This document shows, one piece after another, positions 3,354 to 51,318 of a DNA stretch of 64,000 bases. Location: positions 31,336 to 95,335 of the forward strand of contig JAJFKK010000124.1 in NCBI GenBank assembly GCA_021773245.1. The letters are read 5' to 3'. Source of the DNA: Gammaproteobacteria bacterium (GTDB lineage: Bacteria; Pseudomonadota; Gammaproteobacteria; Eutrophobiales; Eutrophobiaceae). Each line of letters opens with the position of its first letter. Position 1 is the stretch's first letter. The notes beneath the pieces were generated by a model. That model was given only the letters and a program-made list of their open reading frames with translations. It was not told the origin of the DNA and searched no databases. Made by a program: the position numbers and the translations under genes.

Positions 3354-3354
3354 A

Positions 3355-5196: not shown

Positions 5197-5200
5197 AGGA

Positions 5201-5647: not shown

Positions 5648-5683
5648 ATTGTTATTATAATTTTAATAAAAAACTCGAAGCGC

Positions 5684-6010
5684 TTAATCTTCAAGTTGGT
5701 TTTGTATGCTGCTTTCTCCGCGATGATGGTCAGTTAATTTTTCTTTATGTTTTTTTAACTGACGATCAAGTTTGTCTACTAATCCATCTATAGCTGCATA
5801 CATATCTTCCTGTTCGTTTTCAGCAAATAAATTACCGCGATTAACATGTACTGTTGCTTCTGCCTTTTGTCGTTCTTTTTCTACGCTTAAAATAACGTGT
5901 GTATTGTTGATATGTTCGAAGTGTCGTTCCAGTTTTTGGAATTTATTTTCTACATAAGCTTTTAATGAGTCAGTTATGTCTACATGTCTACCGGTTACAT
6001 CAATTTGCAT
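5684..6010 (-). CDS. hpf: Ribosome hibernation promoting factor
   Basis: MQIDVTGRHVDITDSLKAYVENKF... is a canonical HPF/YfiA N-terminus. Confidence 0.9.
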   Translation of the reverse strand: MQIDVTGRHVDITDSLKAYVENKFQKLERHFEHINNTHVILSVEKERQKAEATVHVNRGNLFAENEQEDMYAAIDGLVDKLDRQLKKHKEKLTDHHRGESSIQNQLED

Positions 6011-6035
6011 AGAACCCCCTTTAACAATTTTATTT

Positions 6036-7511: not shown

Positions 7512-7568
7512 ATTATTAAGTGTAACTTAAAATTTCATTGTTTGAAGCGGATCCAAAAAGCAATGAAA

Positions 7569-8294
7569 TTAAAGTGAAAACTCGTCTCCCAAATAAACTT
7601 CCCTAACTTTATCATTATTTAAAATTTGTTCTGTAGATCCTTCGGCAAGAATCTTGCCATCATGTACTACATAAGCACGATCACAGATACCTAGCGTTTC
7701 TCGAACATTATGATCAGTGATTAATATGCCGATTCCATGGTCGCAGAGGCGATGGATTAATCGTTGTATGTCATTGATTGAAATAGGGTCTATGCCCGCG
7801 AAAGGCTCATCCAGCAACAAAAAACGAGGTTCAGAAGCTAATGCTCTGGCGATTTCCAGTCGTCGGCGCTCACCACCAGAAAGGCTCATGCCGAGGTTGT
7901 CTCGTAGGTGAGTAATGTGGAATTCCTGTAGTAATAATTCCAGACGTTGTTTTGCTTTATCGCGGTCATTTGGCAAACGAGTTTCGAGTATCGCCATAAT
8001 ATTTTCTTCAACCGTCAATTTTCTGAACACGGATGCTTCTTGCGGCAGGTAGCCTAAGCCGAGGTGAGAACGCTCATCCATTGATAAACGGCTGATTTCA
8101 CGATTATCCAGATGAATAGTGCCGTTATCTGATGGTACAAGGCCGACAATCATATAAAAACTGGTTGTTTTGCCGGCACCGTTGGCTCCTAATAAACCAA
8201 TTGTTTCTCCACTTTGAACGCTTAGGCTGACATCAGAAACGACCTTTCTTGACCGATAAGACTTGGATAGATGACGTACGGATAAAATGCTCAT
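7569..8294 (-). CDS. lptB: LPS export ABC transporter ATPase LptB
   Basis: Near-collinear with E. coli LptB: Walker [10 protein letters not shown], signature LSGGERRR, C-terminus VYLGDEF. Confidence 0.95.
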
Positions 8295-8386
8295 GGCAAT
8301 ATGTCTTAAAACAGATTAGCAAATAACACTAATGGGCCGTTCAGTGATACACCTTATAATTAGTTAGATACAAAAGTTTAGATCCT

Positions 8387-8965
8387 TTATTGCTGCTTTT
8401 TCTTTTTAATTATTATTTTAACACGACCATCATTTTTCTTGTTGGTCTCGCCATCGTTAGCCTTCGTTGTTCTGGTCGAGCCTTTTGCTATTACCTTGCT
8501 AAGTACGGTGTCATATTCTATGCGTTTGCCACTCATTCGAGAGCCGTTTGGTTTTGTTACTAACGCCTTTTCTTTCAGGATAATGTAATCCTTAAGTGCA
8601 TAATACTCCATTTGTAATGCTTCGGCCTCATCATATGTTTCACTGTCATCGGGCAGCTGTCGATAGGTTGCCGGTTTGCCTTGCATGATTACCAGTTCCA
8701 TATCGCCACTCTCTGCAAAATGCACCGTCATAGTGTGCCCCGTCATTCGGATGCTACCTTGCGTTACTACAACGTCGCCACGGTATGTTGTCACGCCCTT
8801 TAGATCGTCCATTTCAGCTGAATCTGCTTCTATTTCGATATCTTTTTGTTTGTCAGTCGATAAAGCGAACACTGTATTCATCATTAAGATGAAAGTAGCG
8901 CCTAAAATAAATTTTAGAGTTATATTAAGGCGCTGGCGCACTTGATTCGATAGTTGTCTGTACAT
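8387..8965 (-). CDS. lptA: LPS transport periplasmic protein LptA
   Basis: OstA-like fold with VTTYRGDVVVTQGSIRMTG. Start chosen at Met17 (MYRQLS..., signal peptide) rather than the track start at 9013. Confidence 0.8.
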   Translation of the reverse strand: MYRQLSNQVRQRLNITLKFILGATFILMMNTVFALSTDKQKDIEIEADSAEMDDLKGVTTYRGDVVVTQGSIRMTGHTMTVHFAESGDMELVIMQGKPATYRQLPDDSETYDEAEALQMEYYALKDYIILKEKALVTKPNGSRMSGKRIEYDTVLSKVIAKGSTRTTKANDGETNKKNDGRVKIIIKKKKQQ

Positions 8966-9500
8966 TGTTAAGAAACTCCATTCGTTGTTCTTGTAAATAT
9001 GCGCGCATTCCAATAGAAGTTGTGGTTGATTTTTTACTAATTAACGTCGCCGCTTTATCGGTTTCAGCATATTTTTGATCAACTAATACACGTGCATCTT
9101 CGGTTATTAATTCAAGTTTAAGTTTTCCATCATCATCATTTTGATGAAGATAGACATTGCCGTTTAATAAAATAACGTCATTATTTGATGTTACCCAACC
9201 GGTATCGGACTTAACATTGATAGGCGGTTTATCTTTGCGAAAAATTTTTAATTCTGGCTCGTGCAATTCCGATGTGTTGTCGTCAGGGTAATGTGCCATA
9301 TAAACAGCATTTAAACGATTCTTTGGTGTGCCATCCTGATTCATCGTTAAAGTGGTGAAATTTTCCAAATAGTAATCCGGATAATGAGCCAACTTACTTA
9401 ATTTAGTTGCATCATCATCACTGAGTTTGTCTAAAGCCCAATAACTGAAAGCAGCGATAATGACGAGAATAAGTGCTAGTTGCCATCTACCTGTGAACAT
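8925..9500 (-). CDS. lptC: LPS export system protein LptC
   Basis: 191 aa with N-terminal TM anchor. Position between kdsC and lptA. Confidence 0.75.
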   Translation of the reverse strand: MFTGRWQLALILVIIAAFSYWALDKLSDDDATKLSKLAHYPDYYLENFTTLTMNQDGTPKNRLNAVYMAHYPDDNTSELHEPELKIFRKDKPPINVKSDTGWVTSNNDVILLNGNVYLHQNDDDGKLKLELITEDARVLVDQKYAETDKAATLISKKSTTTSIGMRAYLQEQRMEFLNNVQTTIESSAPAP

Positions 9501-9534
9501 AATTATTTTCTAAATTTGCTCAGACAAGATAAGC

Positions 9535-10065
9535 TCAGGATAGGTACGCTTTAATGCGTTCGTCAAATTTGCCTTGGGCTTTCATAATAAATTCACATAC
9601 TTCTCTAACGGCCCCTTGTCCACCTTGATCTTCAGTTACCCAGTTTGCATGTTCTTTTACTTCGGGTCTGGCATCAGCTACAGCAATAGCCAGCCCTACT
9701 TTTGTCATAGCAGGCAAGTCGATAACATCATCACCAACGTAGGCAATTTGCTCTCGTGCCAGCCCTAGCTCTTCAATGAGTTTCATTAACCTTGCGCCTT
9801 TGTCTTTTTCGCCTTGATAAACATATTTGATACCAAGAGACTCCATTCGTTCAGCAACAATTTTTGACGAGCGTGCTGTGATCACAGCAATATTACAACC
9901 TGACTCAAGTAGCATAACCAAACCATGCCCATCTCGCACATGAAATGACTTATATTCATTACCACTTTCGCCCAAAATAAGTTTGCCATCAGTTAAGACG
10001 CCATCGACATCAAATACAGCAAGTTTAACGTGGCTTGCTTTTTCCATTAGCGCTTTCTTGTCCAT
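9535..10065 (-). CDS. kdsC: KDO 8-phosphate phosphatase (HAD family)
   Basis: AVFDVDGVLTDG and GDDVIDLP HAD motifs. Confidence 0.9.
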   Translation of the reverse strand: MDKKALMEKASHVKLAVFDVDGVLTDGKLILGESGNEYKSFHVRDGHGLVMLLESGCNIAVITARSSKIVAERMESLGIKYVYQGEKDKGARLMKLIEELGLAREQIAYVGDDVIDLPAMTKVGLAIAVADARPEVKEHANWVTEDQGGQGAVREVCEFIMKAQGKFDERIKAYLS

Positions 10066-11048
10066 TAGACTACGCGAGCTCGTAATAAATCATGCATATT
10101 TAAAATACCTATTAATCTATTTTCGTCATTAACAACGACTAGCGCATTAATGCTATGTGATTCCATCAGCGCAAGCGCTGAAGCAGCAAGTGAATCGGCA
10201 GTGATGCTTTTTCCATCTTTTGTCATTACATCTTTAACGAGACAAGTTTTTACATCAATGCTTGAGTCGAGTGCTCGTCGCAAATCACCATCAGTAAAAA
10301 TGCCTAAAACATTATCATCATCATCAAGAATAGTTGTTATGCCTAAGCCTTTTTGCGTCATCTCAATGAGTGCTTCACTAAGCAAGGCTTGTTCAGAAAC
10401 TTTGGGAATGCCATCTCCAGTATGCATAATTTCACTAACATGCAGTAATAAACGCCGACCTAATGTTCCGCCAGGATGAGATAAAGCAAAATCGTTTTCA
10501 CTAAAGCCGCGTGCTTCAAGTAAAGCAATCGCGATTGCATCGCCCATCGCCAACGTTGCTGTTGTGCTTGCTGTTGGAGCAAGACCAAGTGGGCATGCTT
10601 CTTTGTTTACGCTCACATCAATATTAACCGTTGCTGATTTTGCCAATGTTGATTCGGAATTACCGGTTAGTGCGATCATTGGAGTGTTTAATCTTTTAAT
10701 GACGGGCAATAAAGCGATTACTTCATCTGTTTCCCCAGAATTGGATAGCACCATAACAATATCTTTACTGGTGATCATGCCCGAGTCACCATGACTGGCT
10801 TCGCCGGGATGAACAAAAAAAGCAGGGGTGCCAGTACTTGCTAAGGTTGCCGCAATTTTATTACCGATGTGTCCTGATTTGCCCATACCAATGACAATGA
10901 CACGTCCGTCACATTTGAGTATTTCATTACAAGCAGCAACAAACTTTTCATCAATACGATCAATTAAGCCTGCAAGTGCTGATTGCTCGGTTTTTATAAC
11001 CGCTTTTCCTAGCGTTTTAAGTTTGTCAGAACTAATTATTTCATTCAT
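10065..11048 (-). CDS. kdsD: Arabinose-5-phosphate isomerase (SIS plus tandem CBS)
   Basis: SIS domain GMGKSGHIG followed by CBS pair. Conserved position. Confidence 0.9.
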   Translation of the reverse strand: MNEIISSDKLKTLGKAVIKTEQSALAGLIDRIDEKFVAACNEILKCDGRVIVIGMGKSGHIGNKIAATLASTGTPAFFVHPGEASHGDSGMITSKDIVMVLSNSGETDEVIALLPVIKRLNTPMIALTGNSESTLAKSATVNIDVSVNKEACPLGLAPTASTTATLAMGDAIAIALLEARGFSENDFALSHPGGTLGRRLLLHVSEIMHTGDGIPKVSEQALLSEALIEMTQKGLGITTILDDDDNVLGIFTDGDLRRALDSSIDVKTCLVKDVMTKDGKSITADSLAASALALMESHSINALVVVNDENRLIGILNMHDLLRARVV

Positions 11049-11052
11049 TTTT

Positions 11053-12036
11053 TTATGTCAGAGCTATGCTTTGCGAGAACAACACATATTGATATGCGAA
11101 AAAACAAAACAATAGTATGGCTCCTTCAGGTCGTACAAGTTTACCCTTGCTTGTGATGAATACCATAGCGCCTATCAATAAAGTTAAGCCAATCATGGTT
11201 GGAAAATCTCGGTGTAAAACTTCTTCGGCGAAATAATCAGGGTTAATTAAAGTTGGGATGCCTAATACGGCAAGCATATTAAACATATTTGAGCCGATAA
11301 TATTGCCCACAGCAATGTCGGCCTCGTTTTTCTTTAAACTAATAATAGAGGCTGCAAGTTCAGGTAGGCTTGTGCCGATTGCGACAATAGTTAAACCTAT
11401 AACGAGATCCGGGACACCAAAAAATTCGGCGATAGAGACAGCGCCTCGTACTAGCAGGTCTGCCCCGAGTAATAACAAGACAAGCCCAATTAACAATTTC
11501 ATTATTGCTTTGCCTAATGCGTCCGGTTTGTTTGATTCATCGGAAAATTCTTGAGCAAATTCGGTTAGGAGAGGGTCGTCAGCACTGCTTCGTTTTGCAA
11601 TCCAAGTAATCCAGCTAATGGAAATAACAAGTGAGGCGAGCAATATTGCTGCATCAATTCGGCTAAGGTGGCCGTCTAGCATTACCGCAAGAGCAATCAT
11701 GGTGGCAGCACACATTAGCCCGTATTCTTTTTTTAATGTATTTGATGCAATCGTTATGGGGAAGATGAGCACACTAAAACCAAGAACTAAGCCGATATTA
11801 GTAATGTTAGAGCCGAGTGCATTACCAATAGCAATGGAGGTTTTGCCTTGCCAGGCAGAAACTGAGCCGACAATAATTTCAGGCGCGGAAGTGGCAAACC
11901 CAACAATTGTTAATCCAATTATTAACGGCGGCATACCTAATTGACGGGCTATGTTCGAAGCGCCATCAACAAAAATATCGGCGCCATATATAAGAAGTGC
12001 AAAGCCAATAAGAACTAATAAACATGAAACCAGCAT
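11053..12036 (-). CDS. yrbG: CaCA-family cation:proton antiporter (YrbG-like)
   Basis: 327 aa, two internal repeats with GNALGSNITN and GNIIGSNMFN alpha-repeat motifs. Confidence 0.8.
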   Translation of the reverse strand: MLVSCLLVLIGFALLIYGADIFVDGASNIARQLGMPPLIIGLTIVGFATSAPEIIVGSVSAWQGKTSIAIGNALGSNITNIGLVLGFSVLIFPITIASNTLKKEYGLMCAATMIALAVMLDGHLSRIDAAILLASLVISISWITWIAKRSSADDPLLTEFAQEFSDESNKPDALGKAIMKLLIGLVLLLLGADLLVRGAVSIAEFFGVPDLVIGLTIVAIGTSLPELAASIISLKKNEADIAVGNIIGSNMFNMLAVLGIPTLINPDYFAEEVLHRDFPTMIGLTLLIGAMVFITSKGKLVRPEGAILLFCFFAYQYVLFSQSIALT

Positions 12037-33163: not shown

Positions 33164-33239
33164 GGGCCGTTAGCTCAGCCGGTAGAGCAGTGGATTTTTA
33201 ATCCATTGGTCGGGCGTTCGAATCGCCCACGGCCCACCA
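33164..33239 (+). tRNA. tRNA-Lys (anticodon TTT)
   Basis: 76-nt cloverleaf GGGCCGTTAGCTCAGCCGGTAGAGCAG..., anticodon loop TTTTTAA, T-arm GTTCGAATC, 3' CCA encoded. Confidence 0.9.
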
Positions 33240-33251
33240 TTTTCTAGATCA

Positions 33252-34334
33252 TTAATTTTTCTTAGAGTTTGAAGGATATAACAATTTCTTAGCATGGATA
33301 AGCTTTCCTGTCTGAGCTGCATTATAGCCGGGCAATTTATTGATTTTATTTTGAAGCTTATTATCTTTGATTATGGCTCGAATTTTATTTTTAAGCTCTT
33401 CAGGCAAAGATTTATTCAAAGCAATAACGTAGGTTTCGTGAATTAACGGCAAGAATGAAAGTTTAAATTGATTAGCTGCGGCTTTTAGCCCAAACCCGAC
33501 ATCAGCTTGACCGCTTGAGATCATTGCCGCTACTGCGGTGTGAGTGAACTCTTCTTTTTTATAGCCATTAATCTTATTTTTGTTGATTCCTTCTGATTTA
33601 ATTAATTGATCGAAAATTGCGCGAGTACCTGAGCCTTGTTGTCGGTTTATAAATTTGATCGCGCGACGTGTGATGCCGGTTAGCTCTTTTAGATGTTTAG
33701 ACAGAGCAGGTTTGAAGATTAGCCCTTGTTGTCTTGTTGCGAGATGGATGTATAGGTGTTTTGTATCATCAAGCAATGGCAGGTATTCAGGCGCTAATTG
33801 TTTCGCAAGGCTGGCATCTGGAAAATGAAAACCGACAATATTATATTTAGAAAACTGTAGTTGCTTAAGGGCATCAAGACTGCCACGCGCATTGAAGTCT
33901 ATCTCCAGGTTTTCTTCTTCACATAAGTCCTGTAAAAAGTTAATAGATAAATCATGACTAGTAAATGCAGTGATTTTTTCCTTTTTATTACTTTGTCCTA
34001 ATAACGTATCAATTTCGATATTTAGTTTATCAGCGCTAGCGTGTAAGGCATCAGCATAGTTCGAATCAATCGCAAGTTTTGTTTGTATTAGTTTTTGACC
34101 TAATGGCGTCAAGCTGGTGCCTTTACCCCTCGCCAAAGTACATAACGGAGTATTAAACGCGTCGTTCCAGTGGCGGATGATTTCCCAAGCTGTGCGGTAA
34201 GAGATGCCGACATCAACAGCTGCTGCTTGTAATGAAGCAGTTAGATTAATGCTTGCTAATAGATCTAATAATCGCGGATCTAACTCTTGTTCTGAATCAG
34301 AAATTAGCCAGCGCACGTCAAAGTCGATCTTCAT
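33252..34334 (-). CDS. ModE-N-terminal-like winged-HTH regulator fused to a periplasmic-binding-protein-like domain (one-component oxyanion sensor)
   Basis: N-terminus LQAAAVDVGISYRTAWEII...RGKGTSLTPLGQKLI matches the ModE HTH. The C-terminal about 230 aa resembles a type-2 PBP fold. Lies divergent to the porin/TupA pair. Confidence 0.65.
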   Translation of the reverse strand: MKIDFDVRWLISDSEQELDPRLLDLLASINLTASLQAAAVDVGISYRTAWEIIRHWNDAFNTPLCTLARGKGTSLTPLGQKLIQTKLAIDSNYADALHASADKLNIEIDTLLGQSNKKEKITAFTSHDLSINFLQDLCEEENLEIDFNARGSLDALKQLQFSKYNIVGFHFPDASLAKQLAPEYLPLLDDTKHLYIHLATRQQGLIFKPALSKHLKELTGITRRAIKFINRQQGSGTRAIFDQLIKSEGINKNKINGYKKEEFTHTAVAAMISSGQADVGFGLKAAANQFKLSFLPLIHETYVIALNKSLPEELKNKIRAIIKDNKLQNKINKLPGYNAAQTGKLIHAKKLLYPSNSKKN

Positions 34335-34433
34335 TTATATGCAATATCCTTCATATTTAGTTTTAAAATATTAACGCTAATATAGAGAATAATAAAACAA
34401 TATATATGTAATATATTGCATATATTTAGGTGA

Positions 34434-35834
34434 TTGAGGATTTTTAAAATGAAAAAATTAAGATTTGTTACTTTGCTCTTATCGATAATTGCGATTTTAT
34501 CAACGTCAGTAGCCCATGCTGGAACCAATCAAGCATTGGTAGAATTGTTAAAGGCATTAGAAGAAAACGGAACGATAAGTAAAGATGTTTATGAATTGGT
34601 TGTTGAAGTTGCCAATCAGGGAGAAACAAATCAAGCAAAAGCTATTGTAGCAAAAGAAGATGTGAAGAAGATGATTCAGGAAGAAGTGAAAGTTGTTGCA
34701 AAGAAACAGGCTAAAGATCAGCCAAAAATAACAATGAAGGATAAGTTTGTTGTTGAATCGGGTGACGGTGATTTCAGTTTACGTGTCGGAGGCCGAATAC
34801 AAGCCGACGCAGCAGCTTATTCAGAAGATATTCGTCGGCAAAATGATGGAACAGAAATGCGAAGAGCGCGTTTATTTGTACAGGGAAAATTTTGGGATGC
34901 CTGGAAATATAAGTTGCAATATGATTTTGTAAATACAGGTAGCGCCGGAATTGCAGATGCCTATCTTCAATATGCCGGAATGCCTTGGAAAGTTACGGTA
35001 GGCCATTTCAAACAGCCTTTCAGTTTGCAAAACATGACTAGCTCAAAATACATAACCTTTACAGAACGTGGTTTGCCACATTTGTTTACACCTGGACGTG
35101 CAATAGGTGTCGGCGCTGGCCGTAGTGGAAACAATTGGAGCTTGAACGCCGGTATATTTGGTGAAGGGATTGACGCAGCTAGCGGTGATGAAGATGAAGG
35201 CTTCGCGTTGACGGGTCGTGCAAGCTATGCACCGATATTAAATAAACAACAGCATTTACATCTTGGTTCATCACTTTCTTATCGCAATAGTGGCTCAAAC
35301 GATACTCTTACTTTTCGTGACCGCCCAGAATCACATGTGACTAATGTGCGTGAAGTTAATACCGGTTCGATCAATGCGGATTCAAATTTACGTGCTGTAG
35401 CTGAGCTTGCATACACGTATGGACCATTTTCGTTGCAAGGTGAATATTATTATGTCGATATAGATCGAGATTCAGCGACACTCTCTGATCTAGATTTTTC
35501 AGGTTATTACGCTGAAGGTAGCTGGTTTTTAACCGATGACATGCGTAATTACAGTGGTAGAAAAGGTTCATATGGAAAAATCAAACCAGGATCAGTTGTA
35601 GGAAAAGGCGGTTTAGGGGCATGGCAATTGGCAATGCGTTTTAGCAGCGTTGATTTAAATGACGCAGACATAGCAGGGGGTGAAGAACAAAATTTTAGTT
35701 TGGGCATGAATTGGTTTGCTACAAATAATATTCGTATGAGTGCTAACTATGTCAAAGTGCTAGATGTTAAAGGTGGTGCCGGTGATGGTGATGAGCCAGA
35801 AGCTTTTCAGGTACGCGCTCAAGCTGAATTCTAG
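34434..35834 (+). CDS. OprO/OprP-family anion-selective porin
   Basis: 466 aa, signal peptide, beta-barrel periodicity, C-terminal aromatic residue. Resembles phosphate-selective porins. Confidence 0.7.
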   Translation: MRIFKMKKLRFVTLLLSIIAILSTSVAHAGTNQALVELLKALEENGTISKDVYELVVEVANQGETNQAKAIVAKEDVKKMIQEEVKVVAKKQAKDQPKITMKDKFVVESGDGDFSLRVGGRIQADAAAYSEDIRRQNDGTEMRRARLFVQGKFWDAWKYKLQYDFVNTGSAGIADAYLQYAGMPWKVTVGHFKQPFSLQNMTSSKYITFTERGLPHLFTPGRAIGVGAGRSGNNWSLNAGIFGEGIDAASGDEDEGFALTGRASYAPILNKQQHLHLGSSLSYRNSGSNDTLTFRDRPESHVTNVREVNTGSINADSNLRAVAELAYTYGPFSLQGEYYYVDIDRDSATLSDLDFSGYYAEGSWFLTDDMRNYSGRKGSYGKIKPGSVVGKGGLGAWQLAMRFSSVDLNDADIAGGEEQNFSLGMNWFATNNIRMSANYVKVLDVKGGAGDGDEPEAFQVRAQAEF

Positions 35835-35869
35835 TTTTAGTAAATAATGAGAATCAAAGGAATATATAA

Positions 35870-36679
35870 ATGAAAAGTTTTTTATCATCAAGTTTGTTAA
35901 TCTTGTTGTTAGGTGTTTCTTTCCAGTCAGTTGCGGAAGTGGAACGATTAAAAATGGCAACAACGACCAGCACAGATAACTCAGGTTTGTTAGCGGTTTT
36001 AAATCCACCGTTTGAAAAAAAATATGATGTTAAATTAGATATTATTTCTGTAGGAACAGGCAAAGCAATACGGCTCGGTAAAAATGGGGATGTAGACTTT
36101 ATTCTCGTTCATGCGCCGGGAGCAGAAAAGGAATTTGTTGATGAAGGTTATGGCGTTGAGCGTGAACCTGTTATGCATAATGATTTTGTTATTGTTGGTC
36201 CTGCAAATGATCCAGTTGATTTAAAAAGTGCTAAGAATATTACTGATGCAATGAAGAAGTTATTGGAAAAAGAAGCTATCTTTGTCTCGAGGGGTGATGA
36301 TTCAGGCACGCATAAAAAAGAAAAAAATCTTTGGAGCAAGGTAGGAGGTGAACCTTCAGGTGTGTGGTATCTGGCTGTTGGTCAAGGTATGGGAGTTGTA
36401 TTAAGAATTGCTGATGATAAAGAAGCTTATACATTGACAGATAGAGGTACTTATTTAGCATACAAAGATAAAATGAAACTGAAAGTGTTATATGGAAATG
36501 ATGAAGCGTTATTCAATCCTTATCATGTGATTATGGTGAACCCAGAAAAACATCCGCATACAAAAATTGATCTGGCTAGAAAATATTCAGAATTTATTCG
36601 TGGTGAAGAAGGGCAAGCGTTAATACAAAATTTTAAAGTAAATGGTGAGTTGTTATTTCATCCAGACGTAATCAAATAA
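35870..36679 (+). CDS. tupA: TupA-like tungstate/oxyanion periplasmic binding protein; orphan, no permease or ATPase adjacent
   Basis: Signal peptide, then TTTSTDNSGLL, which matches the TupA tungstate-binding signature TTTSxxxSGLL. Confidence 0.7.
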   Translation: MKSFLSSSLLILLLGVSFQSVAEVERLKMATTTSTDNSGLLAVLNPPFEKKYDVKLDIISVGTGKAIRLGKNGDVDFILVHAPGAEKEFVDEGYGVEREPVMHNDFVIVGPANDPVDLKSAKNITDAMKKLLEKEAIFVSRGDDSGTHKKEKNLWSKVGGEPSGVWYLAVGQGMGVVLRIADDKEAYTLTDRGTYLAYKDKMKLKVLYGNDEALFNPYHVIMVNPEKHPHTKIDLARKYSEFIRGEEGQALIQNFKVNGELLFHPDVIK

Positions 36680-36834: not shown

Positions 36835-37710
36835 TTACTTGATCTTCTTTTGTATTTTTACGAAATAAAATATTGTAAATAGAAAAATAATAATGAAGCT
36901 AATCCAGCCAAATGTTGAATTATATTGGCTGACTAAATAATCATAAGTGCCACCATAGGTTCTATTGGTGGTGTAGTCAGAAATTTTTATCAGCATAACA
37001 ATGCCGGCATGTACCCCAATGCAGGCAGAGATGCTTTTATGCTTTAAGCGGAGCAACGCTAGTAACACACCAAAGATAAACAGTGTTGAAAAATAATCAA
37101 TGATAGACCATTCGTGAAAACGGCGGAATGCCTCTGGCATCATTGTTAGTCCGGTAGTCCAGCCTATTTCACTGTCAGCAGGAATATCGCGATAACGAAT
37201 AAAATGTACTGCCGCATAGACTAAGCTTGAAAAGAAAGTAGCTATGACGGCACCTGTTTCTTTATATAAACCAGTAAACAACGCGCCGCGGAATATAGAC
37301 TCTTCGATAGTCGCAATTAAAACGCCAACAATAATAGCCTTGGTTATTAGTAGTAGAATCGAATCTATAGAGTAATTACGAGTAGTGTCTATTTCATGTA
37401 TGCCAAGTAAAAAAAGTACTATTTCGATCAATAGCATAATACTCAAGCCGTAAACAAAGCCATTAAACATACCTTTTAAAAAAGTAATAAACTTTTCGTT
37501 ATAACCGAATGCTTTAAATGAAAGTAAGTTATAAAGTTGTAAATAAATGCCGCTGATAACCAAGCCGCTAATTAAAGTTGCGTAAGTCAGGTATTTACGA
37601 AAAGCGAGTTCAAGTACTGGATCGAGTAATAGTTTTAAAGGGTAGGCTAATACCGCACCAACAATAAAGGCGAGTACGATGAATAAGCAAAAAACGATTA
37701 TGGCGCGCAT
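36835..37710 (-). CDS. CPBP-family intramembrane metalloprotease (CAAX protease-like)
   Basis: Multi-TM protein with EESIFRGALF (EExxxR) and downstream His motifs. Confidence 0.7.
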   Translation of the reverse strand: MRAIIVFCLFIVLAFIVGAVLAYPLKLLLDPVLELAFRKYLTYATLISGLVISGIYLQLYNLLSFKAFGYNEKFITFLKGMFNGFVYGLSIMLLIEIVLFLLGIHEIDTTRNYSIDSILLLITKAIIVGVLIATIEESIFRGALFTGLYKETGAVIATFFSSLVYAAVHFIRYRDIPADSEIGWTTGLTMMPEAFRRFHEWSIIDYFSTLFIFGVLLALLRLKHKSISACIGVHAGIVMLIKISDYTTNRTYGGTYDYLVSQYNSTFGWISFIIIFLFTIFYFVKIQKKIK

Positions 37711-37734
37711 GAGGTTGTTTCTGGATAATTGAGA

Positions 37735-38049
37735 CTAATTAATTAATGTCTCGAATTTATCAGTCTTATCTTGAGTGTCAAGCCAGCTAAGCTCTAGTTT
37801 GTCTCCAGCTTTTGCTCCTGCAAACATGAATGAAAGGTAAGGGTTTTTAGAAACAGCTCGGCTCCAATCACAAGAAAATACGATTTGATCATTATGTTTT
37901 ACTGTAACAAGTTTAATGAAATGTGCAGGGACAAGATTTCCGCTATCTATGTCAACTCTGAAACCCGTTTCCATCGGGTGGCGTATAATCGCGCGTACCG
38001 TAGTAATATTATTCCTGGTTTTAGTTTTTAAACGAATCGAAGAAGACAT
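37735..38049 (-). CDS. soxZ: Thiosulfate-oxidation carrier complex protein SoxZ
   Basis: 104 aa with a SoxZ-like sequence. Immediately follows soxY. Confidence 0.85.
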   Translation of the reverse strand: MSSSIRLKTKTRNNITTVRAIIRHPMETGFRVDIDSGNLVPAHFIKLVTVKHNDQIVFSCDWSRAVSKNPYLSFMFAGAKAGDKLELSWLDTQDKTDKFETLIN

Positions 38050-38498
38050 TATCCGCAGCCTCCCTCGTGAACTTCAACGAATGTTTTTGTTGAAAAAAAC
38101 TTTCCATTTGATTTTACGATAACAATGATGTCTGAGGGTTGTTCCATTTTTATTCGCGTAGAGACAAAGCCAACACAACCAGGGGAAAGATCAAAGTTTG
38201 CAATTAATGGCGTTGGGTTTTTATCAACAAAAATCGTAATAGATTCAAGATTGGATAAATTAGTATTTATTTTTAGTGGTACGACAGCCCCATTTTCGAC
38301 TTCAGGGTGTACGCCTATTTTAATCTGATCGGTTTCTTCAAATTGTTGTTCTGGAAAGTAACTATTAATAGCATGGTTATAATCGGTGGCATCAAATGCC
38401 TCTTGGTTCCATTTTGCCAAAGCAGATAGCGGCTTAAGCAAGCCAAATAATAAGGTTGAACCAGATGCAAGGTACTGAAGGAGTTCTCTACGTAACAT
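38049..38498 (-). CDS. soxY: Sulfur carrier protein SoxY
   Basis: Tat signal RRELL and C-terminal GGCG carrier-cysteine motif. Confidence 0.85.
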   Translation of the reverse strand: MLRRELLQYLASGSTLLFGLLKPLSALAKWNQEAFDATDYNHAINSYFPEQQFEETDQIKIGVHPEVENGAVVPLKINTNLSNLESITIFVDKNPTPLIANFDLSPGCVGFVSTRIKMEQPSDIIVIVKSNGKFFSTKTFVEVHEGGCG

Positions 38499-42211: not shown

Positions 42212-43837
42212 ATGACACGTTTTATCCACGGATTTTCTTTAGATAATTTACGCGGCGATATTTATGGTGGCTTAACGGCTGCTGTTGTTGCTTTACCTCT
42301 CGCTCTTGCTTTTGGTGTTGCTTCTGGTGCTGGTCCATTAGCAGGCATGTATGGCGCAATACTGGTTGGTTTTTTTGCTGCTATTTTCGGTGGCACACCA
42401 TCTCAAGTCTCTGGCCCTACTGGCCCGATGACGGTGGTTATGACTGGCATTATCATGCACTTTGCAGGGAACCCGGCGATGGCATTTACCGTTGTTATGC
42501 TTGGTGGCGTATTTCAAATTATTTTTGGTATGTTGAAGTTTGGACGTTTTATCAACCTTGTGCCTTATCCGGTAGTCTCCGGATTCATGAGCGGTATTGG
42601 TTGTATTATCATTATCTTGCAACTTGCGCCGCTAGTAGGTGGAGAATCCGTTAAGGGGATTTTGCAATCCGTCTTGGCTTTGCCTAATTTAATTCACCAG
42701 ATGCAAACTCACGCGTTTAGCTTGGGACTCATTGCATTAGCCATTGTTTGTTTTCTTCCTAAACAGATTAGCCGTTATATCCCTGGTCCTTTATTAGCAT
42801 TAATCGTTGGCACAATAGCGGGAGTCATGTTTTTTAAAGATGCGAGTGTTATCGGTGAGATCCCAACCGGTTTGCCTAGTATGCAATTACCCGTTTTTTC
42901 AGTGGAAGAATTTGCCACCATTATTCAATTCTCTTTGATTCTTGCGTTTCTTGGATCAATTGATTCCTTATTAACGTCATTAATTGCGGATAGTGTTACT
43001 AGAACACATCATAAATCTGATCGTGAATTAGTCGGCCAAGGTATCGGTAATATTGTTGCTGGGTTGTTTGGCGCTATTCCTGGTGCAGGTGCAACGATGC
43101 GAACCGTAGTTAATGTTCGTGCTGGAGGACGTACGCCGATCTCGGGAGCGTTACATGCCATCGTTTTATTGTTAATGGTGTTAGGTTTGGGAGGTCTCGC
43201 TGAACATATTCCTCATGCCGTACTTGCAGGTATTTTGCTTAAAGTCGGTTATGACATTATTGATTGGAATTACGTTAAACGTCTTCATCAGGTTCCACGA
43301 TCCGGTGTACTGATAATGTTAACCACACTAGTGTTAACAGTATTGGTTGATCTTGTTACAGCTGTTGCGGTAGGAACAATTATGGCGAGCATGCTATTTG
43401 TTAAACGTATGGCAAATACTCAGGCAGAAAGCATGAAGATTGTAGGCGGAGCCGGTGATTGGCATGCATTGACTGAAGAAGAAGTTGCCTTATTTGATCG
43501 TGCCAATGGCCGTATTGTTTTATTTCATATAGAAGGGCCAATGAGTTTCGGATCGACTAAAGACATTGTGCAATTATTAACGGCTGATCGTGAACAAGAT
43601 GTACTTATTCTTGATTTTACCGATGTCACGTTTATCGACAGTAGCGCAACATTTGCAGTTGAAGAAGTAGTCAGACAAGCACAGGATGATAATGACTCAG
43701 TTATTATTTGCGGCATGAGTGAATCAGTCGAAAAAGTAATACGAAGTATTGGCGTGAATAAACTTTTGCCATATGAATATATAAAGAAAACAAGACTACA
43801 AGCGTTGCAATTTTCAGAGGAGATACTGAAAAAGTAG
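42212..43837 (+). CDS. SulP-family anion transporter with C-terminal STAS domain
   Basis: 541 aa. SulP signature region SQVSGPTGPMTV and a STAS domain at the C-terminus. Confidence 0.85.
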   Translation: MTRFIHGFSLDNLRGDIYGGLTAAVVALPLALAFGVASGAGPLAGMYGAILVGFFAAIFGGTPSQVSGPTGPMTVVMTGIIMHFAGNPAMAFTVVMLGGVFQIIFGMLKFGRFINLVPYPVVSGFMSGIGCIIIILQLAPLVGGESVKGILQSVLALPNLIHQMQTHAFSLGLIALAIVCFLPKQISRYIPGPLLALIVGTIAGVMFFKDASVIGEIPTGLPSMQLPVFSVEEFATIIQFSLILAFLGSIDSLLTSLIADSVTRTHHKSDRELVGQGIGNIVAGLFGAIPGAGATMRTVVNVRAGGRTPISGALHAIVLLLMVLGLGGLAEHIPHAVLAGILLKVGYDIIDWNYVKRLHQVPRSGVLIMLTTLVLTVLVDLVTAVAVGTIMASMLFVKRMANTQAESMKIVGGAGDWHALTEEEVALFDRANGRIVLFHIEGPMSFGSTKDIVQLLTADREQDVLILDFTDVTFIDSSATFAVEEVVRQAQDDNDSVIICGMSESVEKVIRSIGVNKLLPYEYIKKTRLQALQFSEEILKK

Positions 43838-47040: not shown

Positions 47041-47655
47041 ATGTGGAACACACGATATAAAGTAATAACTTTGTTATTTGTCGTTAGCTTATTAAGTGCG
47101 TGTATGGGAAGCGGCGCGACAACGCCAATAAGATATTACCTTGTTGAACCGGTAGAGTATCCAGGCAGATCACTTAAGGCAGTCAGGCCACTAAGTATAG
47201 AAATTCTTGATCTGCATATTCCTCAGTATCTGGAACGATTTCAGATTGCTTCACGCAGTAGTGAAAGTCGACTTGAGTTCTCTGATGATAATCAGTGGGG
47301 AGAAAACTTACGTAAGAATTTGCTACGAAGTATGGCGAGAAACTTATCAAGGCAGCTTTCAACGATTGATATAGGTACACCTTTGAATCGATCGTCATCA
47401 TTACCAGATTATCGTGTGCAAATTCATATTGAGCAATTTGAACAAGATATTGATAACAAGGTGAAGTTAATGGCTCGATGGCAATTAACCAGCGGTGAAG
47501 AATCAAAGTCACTTGGCGTATTTGGTGCTGAATTAGCAAGTGAACAAGTTATTGAAAAAGATAATTACGATCAAATGATCTTATCCATGCGTCAGCTATA
47601 CGGTGAGCTTAGTGAACGGATAGCCGATAGTATAATTGCCCAAGAAAATAATTAG
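47041..47655 (+). CDS. pqiC: PqiC/YmbA-family lipoprotein
   Basis: Lipobox LLSACMG and ABC-transport-auxiliary lipoprotein fold. Immediately after pqiB. Confidence 0.75.
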   Translation: MWNTRYKVITLLFVVSLLSACMGSGATTPIRYYLVEPVEYPGRSLKAVRPLSIEILDLHIPQYLERFQIASRSSESRLEFSDDNQWGENLRKNLLRSMARNLSRQLSTIDIGTPLNRSSSLPDYRVQIHIEQFEQDIDNKVKLMARWQLTSGEESKSLGVFGAELASEQVIEKDNYDQMILSMRQLYGELSERIADSIIAQENN

Positions 47656-48586
47656 AAAACTAACTGGGAAAGTTATACAAAATTTAACAATGAAACTCCG
47701 GTCTCAACAAAACACGGTTATCGTTGCACTTATGACTTCATGTCTATTTGTACAGAATAGTTTTGCTTTAATAAGTGAAGAAACTAGTGGCATTGAAATA
47801 ATGGAAGAAGTACAAAAACGACATCAGCAATTTCCTTATATTTATGAAGAACAGTCTATGGTTATGGAAGATAGACATGGTAAACGTGATACACGTAAAG
47901 CCAGACGTTATTCAAGAATGGAAGAAGATGGTTCGGTAAAGTTTCTTTTATTATTTGATTATCCAAAGGAAGTAAAAGGTGTTGCCTTGTTAGCTAATCG
48001 TGACGCGAATGGTAATACAAATAAATATATCTATTTGCCTGCATTAGGTGAACAGCTAATCGAAAGTACGGGTGAAGGAAGTAATGACAATTTTCTCGGC
48101 ACTGATTTTTCAGTTGAAAATTTAACAGGTGAAATACTTATTGAACATGCTTATGTTCGACGTAATGATAAAGAAATTAAAGGTATAAAATATTTTGTGA
48201 TTGATGTTTATAGTGCAAATGGACTCATGTCAGAAAAACAAGTTTTAAGACGACACTTTATTCAACAAGACAATCTATACATTACTCTTACTCATCATTT
48301 TGATAAGCAAGGTCGAGTTTCACGTATACAAAGTCACCATGATCTCAAGCCCGTTGATGGTGATATGTGGCGTGCTAACATGATTCTTATGGTAGATAAG
48401 AGAGAACGACATCAATCATTAATAAAAATATCAAAGCGAATTTTTTCGCATGATTATGTTCCGGCTGAAGTTTTTACCGCTAAGTGGTTATATGAAAATT
48501 ATCCTTATATTGAATCTCCGGATAATTCAGATGTTGAAGAAGATTCGGTAGTGTCGAACGAGACAACAGAGGAAAATGCAGAATGA
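47636..48586 (+). CDS. LolA-like outer-membrane lipoprotein-sorting family protein (partner of MMPL exporters)
   Basis: Signal peptide (likely true start near 47690, MKLRSQQ...). About 260-aa LolA-like periplasmic domain. Overlaps the downstream MMPL gene by 4 bp. Confidence 0.6.
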   Translation: MPKKIIRKLTGKVIQNLTMKLRSQQNTVIVALMTSCLFVQNSFALISEETSGIEIMEEVQKRHQQFPYIYEEQSMVMEDRHGKRDTRKARRYSRMEEDGSVKFLLLFDYPKEVKGVALLANRDANGNTNKYIYLPALGEQLIESTGEGSNDNFLGTDFSVENLTGEILIEHAYVRRNDKEIKGIKYFVIDVYSANGLMSEKQVLRRHFIQQDNLYITLTHHFDKQGRVSRIQSHHDLKPVDGDMWRANMILMVDKRERHQSLIKISKRIFSHDYVPAEVFTAKWLYENYPYIESPDNSDVEEDSVVSNETTEENAE

Positions 48587-51318
48587 TCGTAAAAATGTGT
48601 CTATTGGGTTATAAGCATCGTGTTCCAGTGACACTATTGTTGCTACTTGTAACCTTGTTTTCTCTTTTTGGCATGCAACGTTTACAAGTTGATACCGGTA
48701 TAGATAGTTTAATTCCTGCTGATGATCCTGCACGCCAGGTTTATCAAAGAGTCATGGGTGAATTTGGTACAGATAATAAAACCATTATCTATATTAAGGA
48801 TAAGAATTTATGGACGCCAGAAAAACTGACTCGAATTGAACAGCTACATCTGGCGGTAGAAAAAATTGAAGGAGTTACTCGAGTTGATAGCTTATTCAGC
48901 TTACATACGATTCATGGTGATGATGGTAAAATTGTTTCACGACCTGTATTACGATCTGCACCAAAAACAGAGGAAGATGCACTAAGTGCAAAAGAAAGCG
49001 CATTAGCTAACCCACTTTATCTTGGAAATTATTTCTCAAATGATGGTGAAGTAACAGCAATGATAGTTTCTGTTGCTGATGTAGAAGATAAAAATGATTT
49101 TAGTCGAACTATCTATCAAGCACTAGAAGATCAAATTGAAGTTCATCGTTCCGAGTTTAACCGCCTTACACAGGTTGGGCCACCAAGAATTAATGCTGAA
49201 TTAAAGCAGAGTCTTTATGAAGATTTCTTATTACTAGGGCCGTTGTCTGCCTTAATTCTGGTTCTGTCTATTTTAATATTTATGCGTAGTTGGTTATCTG
49301 CGATGGTGCCATTAGTAACGTCGTTGATAACTATTATCTGGACTTTTGGTCTATTAGGCTGGTTAGGTATTCCACTTAATATACTCAGCGCAATGATACC
49401 TTCATTAATTATTGTCATAGGATCAACCGAAGATACGCATTTGATGGCTGCATTTTTACGTGGTCTTGATGAAGATGTTGAAGGAGACTCTCGTCAGCAT
49501 GCGGTTAAATACATGGCAAAACATATTGGTTTGCCATTGGTTCTTACCGTGTTAACAACGGCAATGGGTTTTGCCAGTAATCTTTTTAGTAATATTGAGT
49601 TGATTCAACATTTCTCAATTGCGGCAACTTTCGCTATGTTGGCAAATGGTTTTATTACGGTGCTGGTTTTACCATTGATGCTGTCTTTGTTTGCTCCTGA
49701 TAAAAACATCAGTCTCGTTAAAGACAAGAATACAAAAAGTGTTCCTAATCGGATAATGAAATTATTTCGTTATTCTCAAGATCATTTTCCTTTGTCGACG
49801 TTGCTAGTAACCGCGGTCTTATGCATATTTTTTGTTATGCAGGCAGCCAAGTTATATGTCACAAATGATCCGCTTTCTTATTTTCCAAGCGATCGTCCAT
49901 TAATACAGGATGTTAAACAAATTCATGAAGATCTTGCTGGCGTAAAAATATTCTTTATATCGCTTGAATCTAAACAAGCTAAAGCATTTCAAGATCCAAA
50001 AAATATTAAAAAATTATCTGCGATACAGGAATTTCTTGATAGTCAGGGCGCTTATGATCGCACGATATCTTTAGCCGATCACTTGAAGTTTATGAATCGC
50101 GAATTTCGTAACACTTCTGTTGAGGGCTCTATCCCTGAAACGCGACAATTAGTTGCTCAGTACCTGATGTTTTTTCATCGTAGTGATTTGGATAGTTATG
50201 TCAGCCATGATTACAGTCGTGCCAATATTGTTGTACGTCATAACATTACGGACTCGCATACACTTAACCAATATATTGAAGAACTGGAAAGTGTTTTGGA
50301 GCAAATTGTTGGTCCAGATATGAGATCTTATATTGTTGGTGAAAATCTAATGGTAAATCACGCCGCTGAAAGTTTAATGGTGGAGCAAGTAAAAGCATTG
50401 GTTTTACTGATGACATTAATTTTCTTGATCATGTCGGCAATGTTTACTTCTTTTAAAGGTGGTTTTATTTCACTGGTACCAGCTATTATTCCAATTACCT
50501 TAATGTTTGGCATCATGGGCTTTCTTGATATTCCATTAAATCCGGGCACGGCGATGGTCGCCGTAATCGCAATTGGTATTGCAATTGATGGCACGATTCA
50601 TCTATTAGCGAGATACAATGAGCTTTGTCGTCGCACCTCTGATTATGTTGAGGCAGTTAATACGGCTGTGCAAGAAGAGGCCACGCCGCTTATTGTCTCG
50701 AGCATTGCACTTGCATTTGGATTTGGAATTTTAATCTTTTCAAATTTTACTATTGTTGCACAGTTTGGCGCTTTGGCTGCAGCAACAATGTTATTTTCTA
50801 TCTTTGCTAATCTTTTGATTACGCCGATAATAATGTCACGTATTCGCTTGATTGGTCTTTATCAAATTTTGGCAATGTCAGTCGATCGTGAAGTTCTTGA
50901 CGGTAGTCCGTTATTACAAAACATGACCAACTATCAGCGGCGTAAAGCAATTCTAATATCAGAACTACATGAATTTGAAAAAGGAGAATTACTTGTAGAG
51001 CAGGATACAATTGGTCGAGATATGTATCTTATACTTTCTGGTGAAGTAGAAGTAATTCGAAAAGATGATGGTGAATCTCGTTCATTGGCTGTTTTGAAAC
51101 CGGGACAAATTTTTGGTGAGATTGGTTATATTCGTGAAACTGAAAGAACAGCGGATGTATTAGCGCTAGAGAATGTTTCAGCCTTACGTTTTGACTATGA
51201 ACGTATGCAAAAAGACTTAAAGTTTTTTCCAAATATTGTTGCTAAGCTAAATTTCAATATTAGTTATATCCTCGGTAAACGCTTGGCAGATATGGTCGGT
51301 AGCTCGAAAAGTAAATAA
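48583..51318 (+). CDS. MMPL/RND-superfamily exporter (COG1033-like, 12 TM, two periplasmic loops) fused to a C-terminal cyclic-nucleotide-binding (CAP-type) domain
   Basis: 911 aa. Two 6-TM bundles with SSD-like cores. C-terminal about 135 aa (approximately 50905-51315) carries FGEIGYI...RTADV, the hallmark cNMP-binding beta-roll/phosphate-binding cassette. Confidence 0.8.
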   Translation: MIVKMCLLGYKHRVPVTLLLLLVTLFSLFGMQRLQVDTGIDSLIPADDPARQVYQRVMGEFGTDNKTIIYIKDKNLWTPEKLTRIEQLHLAVEKIEGVTRVDSLFSLHTIHGDDGKIVSRPVLRSAPKTEEDALSAKESALANPLYLGNYFSNDGEVTAMIVSVADVEDKNDFSRTIYQALEDQIEVHRSEFNRLTQVGPPRINAELKQSLYEDFLLLGPLSALILVLSILIFMRSWLSAMVPLVTSLITIIWTFGLLGWLGIPLNILSAMIPSLIIVIGSTEDTHLMAAFLRGLDEDVEGDSRQHAVKYMAKHIGLPLVLTVLTTAMGFASNLFSNIELIQHFSIAATFAMLANGFITVLVLPLMLSLFAPDKNISLVKDKNTKSVPNRIMKLFRYSQDHFPLSTLLVTAVLCIFFVMQAAKLYVTNDPLSYFPSDRPLIQDVKQIHEDLAGVKIFFISLESKQAKAFQDPKNIKKLSAIQEFLDSQGAYDRTISLADHLKFMNREFRNTSVEGSIPETRQLVAQYLMFFHRSDLDSYVSHDYSRANIVVRHNITDSHTLNQYIEELESVLEQIVGPDMRSYIVGENLMVNHAAESLMVEQVKALVLLMTLIFLIMSAMFTSFKGGFISLVPAIIPITLMFGIMGFLDIPLNPGTAMVAVIAIGIAIDGTIHLLARYNELCRRTSDYVEAVNTAVQEEATPLIVSSIALAFGFGILIFSNFTIVAQFGALAAATMLFSIFANLLITPIIMSRIRLIGLYQILAMSVDREVLDGSPLLQNMTNYQRRKAILISELHEFEKGELLVEQDTIGRDMYLILSGEVEVIRKDDGESRSLAVLKPGQIFGEIGYIRETERTADVLALENVSALRFDYERMQKDLKFFPNIVAKLNFNISYILGKRLADMVGSSKSK

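Follow-up and report, generated by a model that had tools for sequence, protein, structure and literature searches.

How does a bacterium acquire an oxyanion when the gene for the binding protein stands beside a porin gene and permease genes are missing from the vicinity, and which signal controls such a system? These questions are raised by a locus in a 64,000-nucleotide stretch of DNA from a gammaproteobacterium (Eutrophobiales, Eutrophobiaceae; assembly GCA_021773245.1, contig JAJFKK010000124.1, positions 31,336 to 95,335; hereinafter the window, in whose numbering all positions are given). In this locus, a regulator gene is transcribed divergently from two genes that code for an outer-membrane porin of the OprO/P family and a binding protein of the TupA family (Table 1). 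An earlier note, made from the letters alone, described a regulated oxyanion module between positions 33164 and 36679, and the genes, domains and strands that it named are all present as described. The passage of molybdate and tungstate through the outer membrane is poorly understood, and, to our knowledge, ModE and TunR are the only known sensors of these ions.

The reading that we favor, with a probability of roughly 0.58, is that the three genes comprise a chromosomal system for the acquisition of tungstate, with molybdate as the second-best substrate, which feeds a permease encoded elsewhere. Under this scenario, the porin-tupA operon would be transcribed from a promoter located between two operators of the form ATATG-N10-CATAT; the porin, an OprP-type channel with a remodelled selectivity filter, would admit the oxyanion to the periplasm, where TupA would bind it with very high affinity and pass it on to a permease of the inner membrane, TupBC or ModBC, whose genes would lie in another part of the genome. 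The regulator, a protein of LysR architecture with a TupA/ModA-like sensor of the periplasmic-binding-protein (PBP) fold (PF12727), would occupy both operators, of which box 1 lies in the leader of the regulator gene and overlaps the -35 region of the predicted porin-tupA promoter, and box 2 lies in the porin leader. Occupancy of the boxes, set by an effector that is most likely the oxyanion itself, would tune the operon and autoregulate the regulator. The genes and their domains, the conserved residues of the TupA pocket, the sequence, number, position and conservation of the operators and the conservation of the module are observed; the position of the promoter, the effector, the direction of the response, the substrate of the porin and the remote permease are the parts of this reading that we infer. 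The general idea of the earlier note, a regulated route from the outer membrane to the periplasm encoded by divergently arranged genes, fits the evidence on both counts. All parts of the module come from known families; what appears to be new is the combination.

A TupA-family binding protein without an adjacent permease

The binding protein belongs to the family PF12849 (PBP_like_2 type, E = 4.7e-47) and matches the structures of Geobacter TupA (PDB 3LR1, E = 1.7e-81, approximately 60% identity as read from the alignment) and of the biochemically characterised TupA of D. alaskensis (PDB 5MY5, E = 1.1e-67). The tungstate signature TTTSTDNSGLL, to which the earlier note had drawn attention, is contained in the open reading frame (ORF), and the full pocket is conserved along with it. 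In the D. alaskensis protein, this pocket consists of T9-T11, S12, H59, R118, T124 and D170 (PMC5517513); all eight pocket residues are retained in the alignment of the window protein to 5MY5. The wild-type D. alaskensis TupA binds tungstate best and molybdate second, and binds neither sulfate, phosphate nor perchlorate (PMC5517513). Given that the arginine at position 118 is kept, the window protein is expected to be a tungstate binder with molybdate as its second ligand. A signal peptide of the Sec type, with predicted cleavage between QSVA and EVE, directs the protein to the periplasm. A look-up of the exact protein sequence gave no match. Fold, family, pocket and periplasmic signal are all shared with the binding proteins of the TupABC systems of Eubacterium acidaminophilum, Campylobacter jejuni, D. 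alaskensis G20 and G. sulfurreducens (3LR1), in which tupB and tupC adjoin tupA, whereas the window tupA adjoins a porin gene instead, without a permease.

This arrangement recurs in many genomes. A scan of metagenomic contigs for the porin subfamily, with an alignment of five porins as the query, returned 80 loci. The regulator gene is located divergently upstream of the porin in 42 of the 56 loci with enough upstream sequence, and TupA is encoded directly downstream of the porin in 48 of 64; TupB follows TupA in 4 of the 34 loci in which at least 2.5 kb of further sequence is available. Given the absence of tupB after TupA in the other 30, a permease-less TupA appears to be the rule for this porin subfamily, that is, a conserved design and not an accident. 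Most of the other loci have an unrelated gene of convergent orientation behind tupA. Where tupBC genes are present, the order is either TupA2-TupB-TupC (L086, L089, L091 and L101) or TupB-TupC directly (L123 and L124). In the first group, the second TupA is in frame with TupB in a single 510-aa ORF (L086:10215-11747), with TupC next, and coexists with the free porin-linked TupA; the NCBIfam models score 235 bits for TupA in the N-terminal part and 179 bits for TupB in the C-terminal part of this fusion. ABC (ATP-binding cassette) ATPases that are 28-32% identical to TupC and are encoded 2 kb past tupA in many metagenomic loci were rejected as parts of an unrelated ABC-2-type system located behind a convergent gene.

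The lack of tupBC next to TupA in 30 of 34 loci would also be expected if TupA were a periplasmic buffer, sink or selectivity filter, by which tungstate is, for example, kept from molybdate uptake or stored, with the porin controlling access. The coexistence of TupA1 with the TupB-fused second copy in the L086-type loci likewise makes a role distinct from delivery possible. However, it is common in ABC systems for orphan binding proteins to share a permease that is encoded at a distance, the pocket and the overall sequence are those of transporter-linked TupAs, and six related loci run straight into tupB(C). Given, in addition, that no benefit of a sink is obvious at the picomolar concentrations of tungstate in seawater, we consider this role quite improbable and retain delivery to a remote permease as the preferred interpretation.

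Conservation of the module across lineages

The genes that flank the module vary between lineages and the three genes stay together, including in the loci L001-L003 from the GTDB genomes. In the lineage of the window (L001, L081, L161 and L162), the synteny extends over soxYZ, the gene for a CPBP protease, tupA, the porin slot, the regulator gene, tRNA-Lys and the genes for a Zn-ribbon protein, a DUF502 protein, aspS and nadA, with regulators that are only 58-72% identical. An OprP-like porin fills the slot for an outer-membrane protein in the window and in L001 and L081. In L162:8495-9877, a non-homologous barrel of the AlgE-like type (PF13372, E = 8e-51) takes its place, and L161:9514-10000 (GCA_025491055.1) retains a decayed porin of approximately 490 bp, next to which tupA, the regulator gene and at least one exact operator box are kept. 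Given that the same slot is filled in these syntenic relatives by an OprP-like protein, an AlgE-like protein or a porin remnant, the function of an outer-membrane channel appears to be tied to TupA.

The distance of 12 nt between tRNA-Lys and the stop codon of the regulator gene could point to a recent genomic island inserted at the tRNA gene. The module has a G+C content of 0.37-0.41, the same as its flanks, though; the whole neighborhood is syntenic in the relatives with 58-72% identical regulators, and no integrase was seen (flanking repeats were not looked for), so that an island is the least probable of the alternatives that we weighed. The tRNA gene is located 12-16 nt from the regulator stop in L001, L081, L161 and L162 and is absent in L002 and L093, both of which carry the module. 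The adjacency of tRNA-Lys, which the earlier note had named in its heading, is therefore lineage-specific synteny that speaks neither for function nor for mobility.

In the one library of open-access papers that was searched, no publication was found that connects tupA with a porin of the OprP type or a regulator of the LysR type, or that describes this gene combination, its wide conservation, the transporter-less design or the defined operator. In dozens of lineages, the porin subfamily shows genetic linkage to TupA; it is a candidate for the outer-membrane route of tungsten and molybdenum oxyanions.

The porin: an anion channel with a remodelled filter

The identification of the porin as OprP-like, made in the earlier note, is borne out by the match to PF07396 (Porin_O_P, E = 3.9e-72, 244 bits against a cutoff of 20.9) and by the matches to the structures of OprP (PDB 2O4V, E = 3.7e-27) and OprO (E = 3.6e-26), with approximately 25% identity. 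The protein has a signal peptide that ends in SVAHA before GT, the domain of a family of 16-stranded barrels and a C-terminal phenylalanine. In the phmmer alignment (residue numbers of the 2O4V chain), R34, R59, R60, K74, D94, S124, S125, K126 and R133 of OprP are kept; the arginine ladder and the central-site residues (R34, R59, R60, R133, D94, S124, S125 and K126) are thus present, and most of them are invariant in the subfamily alignment. The changed residues are Y62 (to R), Y114 (to K), K121 (to N), K109 (to T), K30 (to R) and K25 (to G). At the equivalents of Y62 and Y114, the arginine (within RRAR) and the lysine (within HFKQPF) are invariant in the five-member subfamily alignment. We take these positions to be the specificity pair that distinguishes OprP (Y62 and Y114, phosphate) from OprO (F62 and D114, pyrophosphate); the residue identities at 62 and 114 in the two channels reportedly go back to work of Modi et al. 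in 2015. An N-terminal helical extension of approximately 75 residues (residues ~25-97; window 34449-34740) with the conserved motif LLKALxxNGTIxxxxYELV is missing from OprP. Searches of Pfam with this extension gave weak, unconvincing matches only (SHOCT-like, E = 0.003, in one homologue, and the N-terminus of Porin_5); it might be an element for periplasmic docking or oligomerisation.

The family domain and most of the anion-site residues that we checked are common to the window porin and OprP/OprO of P. aeruginosa (2O4V, 4RJW). The latter are linked to pst and Pho, whereas the window porin is linked to tupA and a regulator of the FdsR family (see below), and differs in the positions 62 and 114 and in the N-terminal extension. 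Judging from the alignment, the protein is an anion-specific channel with a remodelled filter; a preference for tungstate or molybdate is suggested by the genetic linkage only.

The family of this porin is known for phosphate and pyrophosphate, soxYZ is located 1 kb downstream of the module and a SulP transporter gene 5.5 kb away, and the TupA score lies under the NCBIfam cutoff. Together, these features could indicate that the module handles another anion, such as phosphate, sulfate or thiosulfate, and that the likeness to TupA and OprP misleads. Against this stand the conservation of all eight residues of the tungstate pocket, the failure of D. alaskensis TupA to bind sulfate, phosphate or perchlorate (PMC5517513) and the change of both positions of the OprP/OprO specificity pair in the porin. 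In other lineages, moreover, the genes around the module are unrelated ones, so that the soxYZ neighborhood is incidental. Another substrate is accordingly very improbable in our view.

Two operator boxes and a predicted promoter

The ORF list placed the porin start at a TTG (34434); given that the ATG at 34449 is preceded by GAGGA and agrees with the MKK... start of the homologues, the ATG is the most likely start codon. The porin and tupA genes are separated by 35 nt that contain the ribosome-binding site AAGGAA and are probably co-transcribed as one operon. The region between the regulator and the porin, which the earlier note had called extremely AT-rich, comprises 114 bp with 82% A+T. A palindrome, ATATG-N10-CATAT, was spotted by eye in aligned divergent regions. 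Exactly two copies of it are present in the window, both in the divergent region, against 0.12 expected from dinucleotide-preserving shuffles of the 64 kb, and allowing one mismatch adds a single further site elsewhere in the window. Box 1 ends 2 nt upstream of the regulator ATG, with the ribosome-binding site of the regulator (AAGGA) within its spacer, and box 2 is located 25 nt upstream of the porin ATG. The near-palindrome atatattgcatatat (34413-34427), which the earlier note compared with ModE operators, is part of a real element, yet it covers only the right half of box 2, so the operator had been mis-specified.

Across 25 non-redundant loci of the porin type, the two boxes start 65-68 bp from each other, box 1 abuts or overlaps the start codon of the regulator gene, and the arms are 85-100% conserved, with a spacer that is A/T-rich but variable. 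The DNA fetched for the analysis (2.3 Mb) contains 79 exact boxes, 72 of which are less than 400 bp from a detected regulator gene; 6 of the remaining 7 adjoin regulator genes that are truncated or outside the BLAST set, which brings the total to 78 of 79. With no or one mismatch, the box also precedes the family members of fds-type and tupABC-type loci, among them loci of high-G+C genomes, usually as two copies 70-120 bp apart; the spacing in fds loci is mostly 75-100 bp, compared to 65-68 bp in the porin-type loci. Given this presence upstream of family members in the porin, fds and tupABC contexts, ATATG-N10-CATAT is the predicted operator of the entire family. The box has the form T-N12-A, compared to T-N11-A in the boxes of LysR-type regulators, with the divergent arrangement typical of the latter.

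A hexamer TAnnnT on the porin strand follows box 1 at a distance of 22-23 nt in 23 of the 25 non-redundant regions, and no other offset comes close. On this positional evidence, the -10 element of the porin-tupA promoter would be TAATAT, with transcription starting near 34390, the center of box 1 (which would overlap a poor -35 region) at about -44, and the center of box 2 at about +23. This layout suggests autorepression of the regulator combined with a dual control of the operon, in which box 1 would serve for activation and box 2 for repression. FdsR, a member of the same family, is said to be a dual regulator.

The regulator and its family

The regulator matches PF12727 (PBP_like) over residues 141-312 (E = 2.4e-47). 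Its N-terminal part matches the ModE model TIGR00637 (E = 3.8e-13, 49.3 bits, under the cutoff of 98.5 bits), the closest match of the winged helix (residues 18-89) among PDB sequences is ModE (1O7L/1B9M, E = 1e-6), and the Pfam domain HTH_1 scores 26.3 bits, just under its cutoff of 26.6. The domain search detected no TOBE/Mop domain in the protein, the C-terminal region being PF12727, which also takes the place of LysR_substrate (PF03466) as the effector domain. An AlphaFold (AF2) model built with 30 homologues (predicted local distance difference test score, pLDDT, 88.9) shows a winged helix that is connected by a linker helix of 35 residues to an alpha/beta domain with two lobes, and all of the top 50 matches listed by Foldseek against the PDB are full-length LysR-type regulators (best E ~1e-13, probability 1.00). 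The modelled protein thus has the full architecture of the LysR-type transcriptional regulators (LTTRs), the commonest among bacterial regulators, with PF12727 in place of PF03466. The earlier note had described a ModE-type winged helix joined to a PBP fold without TOBE/Mop domains; the domain calls hold, and the PBP fold of the C-terminal domain is the match of the profile search, whereas the notion of an unusual hybrid gives way to a LysR-type architecture and a large family.

A scan in which each GTDB species was represented by one genome confirmed at least 596 loci of this family, and a protein search returned at least 414 clusters, many of them labelled by JGI as 'molybdate transport repressor ModE-like protein'. 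Residues S126, H127, H170, R201, Q203, R231, Q232, S235, T237, R238, E262, T264 and H265 are invariant among the regulators compared. ModE, a repressor of modABC that responds to molybdate (1O7L, 1B9M) and whose winged helix is the closest PDB match of the window regulator, likewise has a palindromic operator that is rich in A+T, with arms similar to TATAT, and oxyanion uptake genes as targets, but senses its ligand through tandem Mop/TOBE domains, in contrast to the PBP-fold sensor and the ATATG and CATAT arms 10 bp apart that characterise the system described here. TunR was considered as a close relative with PF12727 and dropped; it reportedly combines a ModE-like sensor with an XerC-like DNA-binding domain.

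Link to FdsR and the genomic contexts of the family

Gene maps were compared for the best 80 of the at least 596 GTDB loci, and three recurring contexts were identified: (i) divergent from fdsGBA(C)D, (ii) adjoining tupABC and/or modA, and (iii) divergent from a porin, with or without tupA. The first accounts for approximately 45 of the 80 loci, mainly in Betaproteobacteria and often with a gene for an oxalate/formate-type transporter of the major facilitator superfamily (MFS). The third comprises four loci with porin and tupA (L001-L003 and L049) and one with the porin alone (L007). Four Cupriavidus species (L019, L024, L041 and L080) encode a family member divergently from fdsGBA, to which the window regulator is 35-36% identical over residues 21-346 (E = 5e-65 to 2e-63).

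FdsR is reportedly the LysR-type regulator of the fdsGBACD operon of C. necator, a description that is said to date from Oh and Bowien in 1999. Given that the divergent arrangement in Cupriavidus is the one used to define FdsR/PfdsG, FdsR can be assigned to the family of the window regulator, by synteny and not via the H16 sequence; a branch of this family, whose operator is sharply defined, thus would include a characterised member. FdsR/PfdsG is formate-inducible, with a Km of 130 uM and a 4.5-fold response, and is among the systems that are active in E. coli (Hanko et al., 2020; PMC7057948). The winged helix, the linker helix, PF12727, the divergent genes and two boxes of the ATATG-N10-CATAT type are common to FdsR and the window regulator (approximately 35% identity). 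The targets differ, a formate dehydrogenase in one case and a porin with TupA in the other, and the window regulator belongs to a separate clade in which G151-S152 and E261 are invariant or nearly so and M276 does not occur.

Several loci combine the contexts. In L012 and L023 (metagenome-assembled genomes of Oxalicibacterium and Herminiimonas; ~2800-11100), tupA stands beside fdsGBA-fdhD on the same strand, and the regulator gene separates these genes from modABC. A single metagenomic contig (L158:1-15600) carries fdsGBA, a regulator of the porin clade, two tandem porins, a ModA-type protein and TupA.

What the regulator may sense

With E = 1.4e-48, the sensor domain is similar to the PBP domain at the C-terminus of the MoeA-fusion model NF011068, and a profile-profile alignment to TupA, weak as it is, pairs the regulator motifs GFHFP and NRQQGSGTR with LVHAP (containing His59) and SRGDDSGTH (containing Arg118 and Thr124), respectively. 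Given the match to NF011068, the placement of these motifs on TupA and the oxyanion uptake genes that are the targets, we consider it somewhat more probable than the opposite that the window regulator senses tungstate or molybdate.

The main rival is formate, in which case the module would supply the metal within a formate dehydrogenase regulon: in the presence of formate, the cell would produce the channel and the binding protein and thereby gain tungsten or molybdenum for the cofactor of the enzyme. The divergence of the regulator gene from fdsGBA(C)D in more than half of the best GTDB loci, including those of the four Cupriavidus species, the formate response of FdsR/PfdsG, the operator box and the pocket-motif residues that are shared, the latter almost completely, across contexts, and the physical union of tupA or modA with fds genes in L012, L023 and L158 are all consistent with this possibility. 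However, no fds genes are present in the window or in the flanks of its syntenic relatives. In a neighbor-joining tree of 121 regulators, the porin-linked, TupA-linked and fds-linked proteins fall into largely separate clades. A strict contrast between fds-linked and TupA-linked regulators (a different residue, at least 75% conserved in each group) yields position 283 only; in a looser contrast of the three groups, G151-S152 (100%) and E261 (87-93%) are conserved in porin-linked and TupA-linked regulators, with all three positions variable in the fds-linked ones, and Met276 is 95% conserved in fds-linked regulators only. The separate clades, together with these differences at G151-S152, E261 and M276, favor functional divergence of the groups. 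Moreover, the uptake of metal oxyanions is usually subject to feedback from the imported ion, as in the control of modABC by ModE. Both formate as the effector of the window regulator and the corresponding role of the module therefore appear unlikely, although they form the strongest of the alternatives. The earlier note had proposed a ligand-sensing repressor for group-6 oxyanions; the oxyanion is plausible, the only available data, those on FdsR, point to formate, and the inferred geometry of the promoter fits dual control and not simple repression.

The following points weigh against tungstate acquisition by the module. The profile-profile alignment between the sensor and TupA has a probability of 9% (E = 0.0035), nearly all pocket-motif residues are common to fds-linked and TupA-linked regulators, and FdsR, the one protein of the family for which experimental data are available, is responsive to formate and not to an oxyanion (PMC7057948). 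A generic sigma-70 scan called no promoter in the divergent region. The substrate of the porin is not readable from a sequence that aligns to OprP with approximately 25% identity. The TupA score against NF041772 (240 bits) is below the 400-bit equivalog cutoff of NCBIfam; given that the copies in tupABC clusters of related Gammaproteobacteria score equally low (234-235 bits for TupA and 156-179 bits for TupB), this cutoff appears too narrow to be informative for this lineage. Finally, the hand-over from TupA to a permease is conjectural: tupB follows TupA in just 4 of 34 related loci, and tblastn searches with TupB and TupC from related loci found no homologues in the 64-kb window, in agreement with the absence of tupB and tupC near the binding protein reported in the earlier note. 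The sole match to an ABC ATPase in the window (7647-8285, 26% identity) lies within an ORF (7569-8294) that is putatively lptB, judging from its size of 241 aa and the adjoining 491-aa rpoN-like ORF.

If the regulator senses tungstate, it could serve as the scaffold of a biosensor; if it senses formate, the cells couple the sensing of a substrate to the supply of the cofactor metal. Either outcome would inform on the use of tungsten by aerobic marine bacteria. More speculatively, and with doubts that outweigh our confidence, the module may represent the first dedicated outer-membrane channel for tungstate and molybdate, an OprP-type barrel with Arg and Lys as the specificity pair, and a third class of regulators that sense these ions, beyond ModE and TunR, with PF12727 as the sensor and ATATG-N10-CATAT as the recognition site, joined with a free TupA into a self-contained capture unit by which many marine Gammaproteobacteria would scavenge picomolar tungstate in the presence of a thousand-fold excess of molybdate.

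Layout of the locus and neighboring genes

The features of the locus are listed in Table 1. A search of the window against Rfam detected no Moco/Tuco riboswitch and no RNA family besides the tRNA, and the generic scan for promoters and terminators called no terminator after tupA.

Table 1. Features of the regulator-porin-tupA locus (window numbering)
Feature	Position	Strand	Basis and remarks
tRNA-Lys(UUU)	33164-33239	+	ARAGORN and Rfam; neighbor, convergent with the 3' end of the regulator gene, not a functional part of the module
Regulator ORF, 360 aa	33252-34334	-	winged helix-turn-helix ~18-89, linker helix 77-111, PF12727 PBP-fold sensor ~120-345
Operator box 1, ATATGCAATATCCTTCATAT (ATATG-N10-CATAT)	34337-34356	strand-neutral	exact match
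Predicted -10 hexamer TAATAT of the porin-tupA promoter	34378-34383	+	positional conservation, not mapped
Operator box 2, ATATGTAATATATTGCATAT (ATATG-N10-CATAT)	34404-34423	strand-neutral	exact match
OprO/P-family outer-membrane anion channel	34449-35834	+	PF07396; OprP/OprO PDB matches
TupA-family tungstate/molybdate-binding protein, 269 aa	35870-36679	+	PF12849; TupA PDB matches

The next gene past tupA is convergent and codes for a CPBP/Rce1-like protease (36835-37710); it is followed by soxZ and soxY. In the order of transcription, soxY, soxZ and the gene for the intramembrane protease (36835-38498, minus strand) form a trio that is kept in the syntenic loci L081, L161 and L162. An anion transporter of the SulP family (PF00916, E = 8e-94) that includes a STAS domain is encoded on the plus strand at 42212-43837, 5.5 kb downstream of tupA; there is no evidence of a tie to the porin-tupA module. 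Its counterpart in L161 is called as two genes, and one of the parts has a weak Pfam match to MOT1, a molybdate transporter. Further downstream (47636-51318, plus strand), the gene for a LolA-like protein precedes that for a membrane protein of the MMPL/RND type (911 aa), in which a domain of the sterol-sensing type is combined with a cyclic-nucleotide-binding domain at the C-terminus, apparently an unusual fusion.

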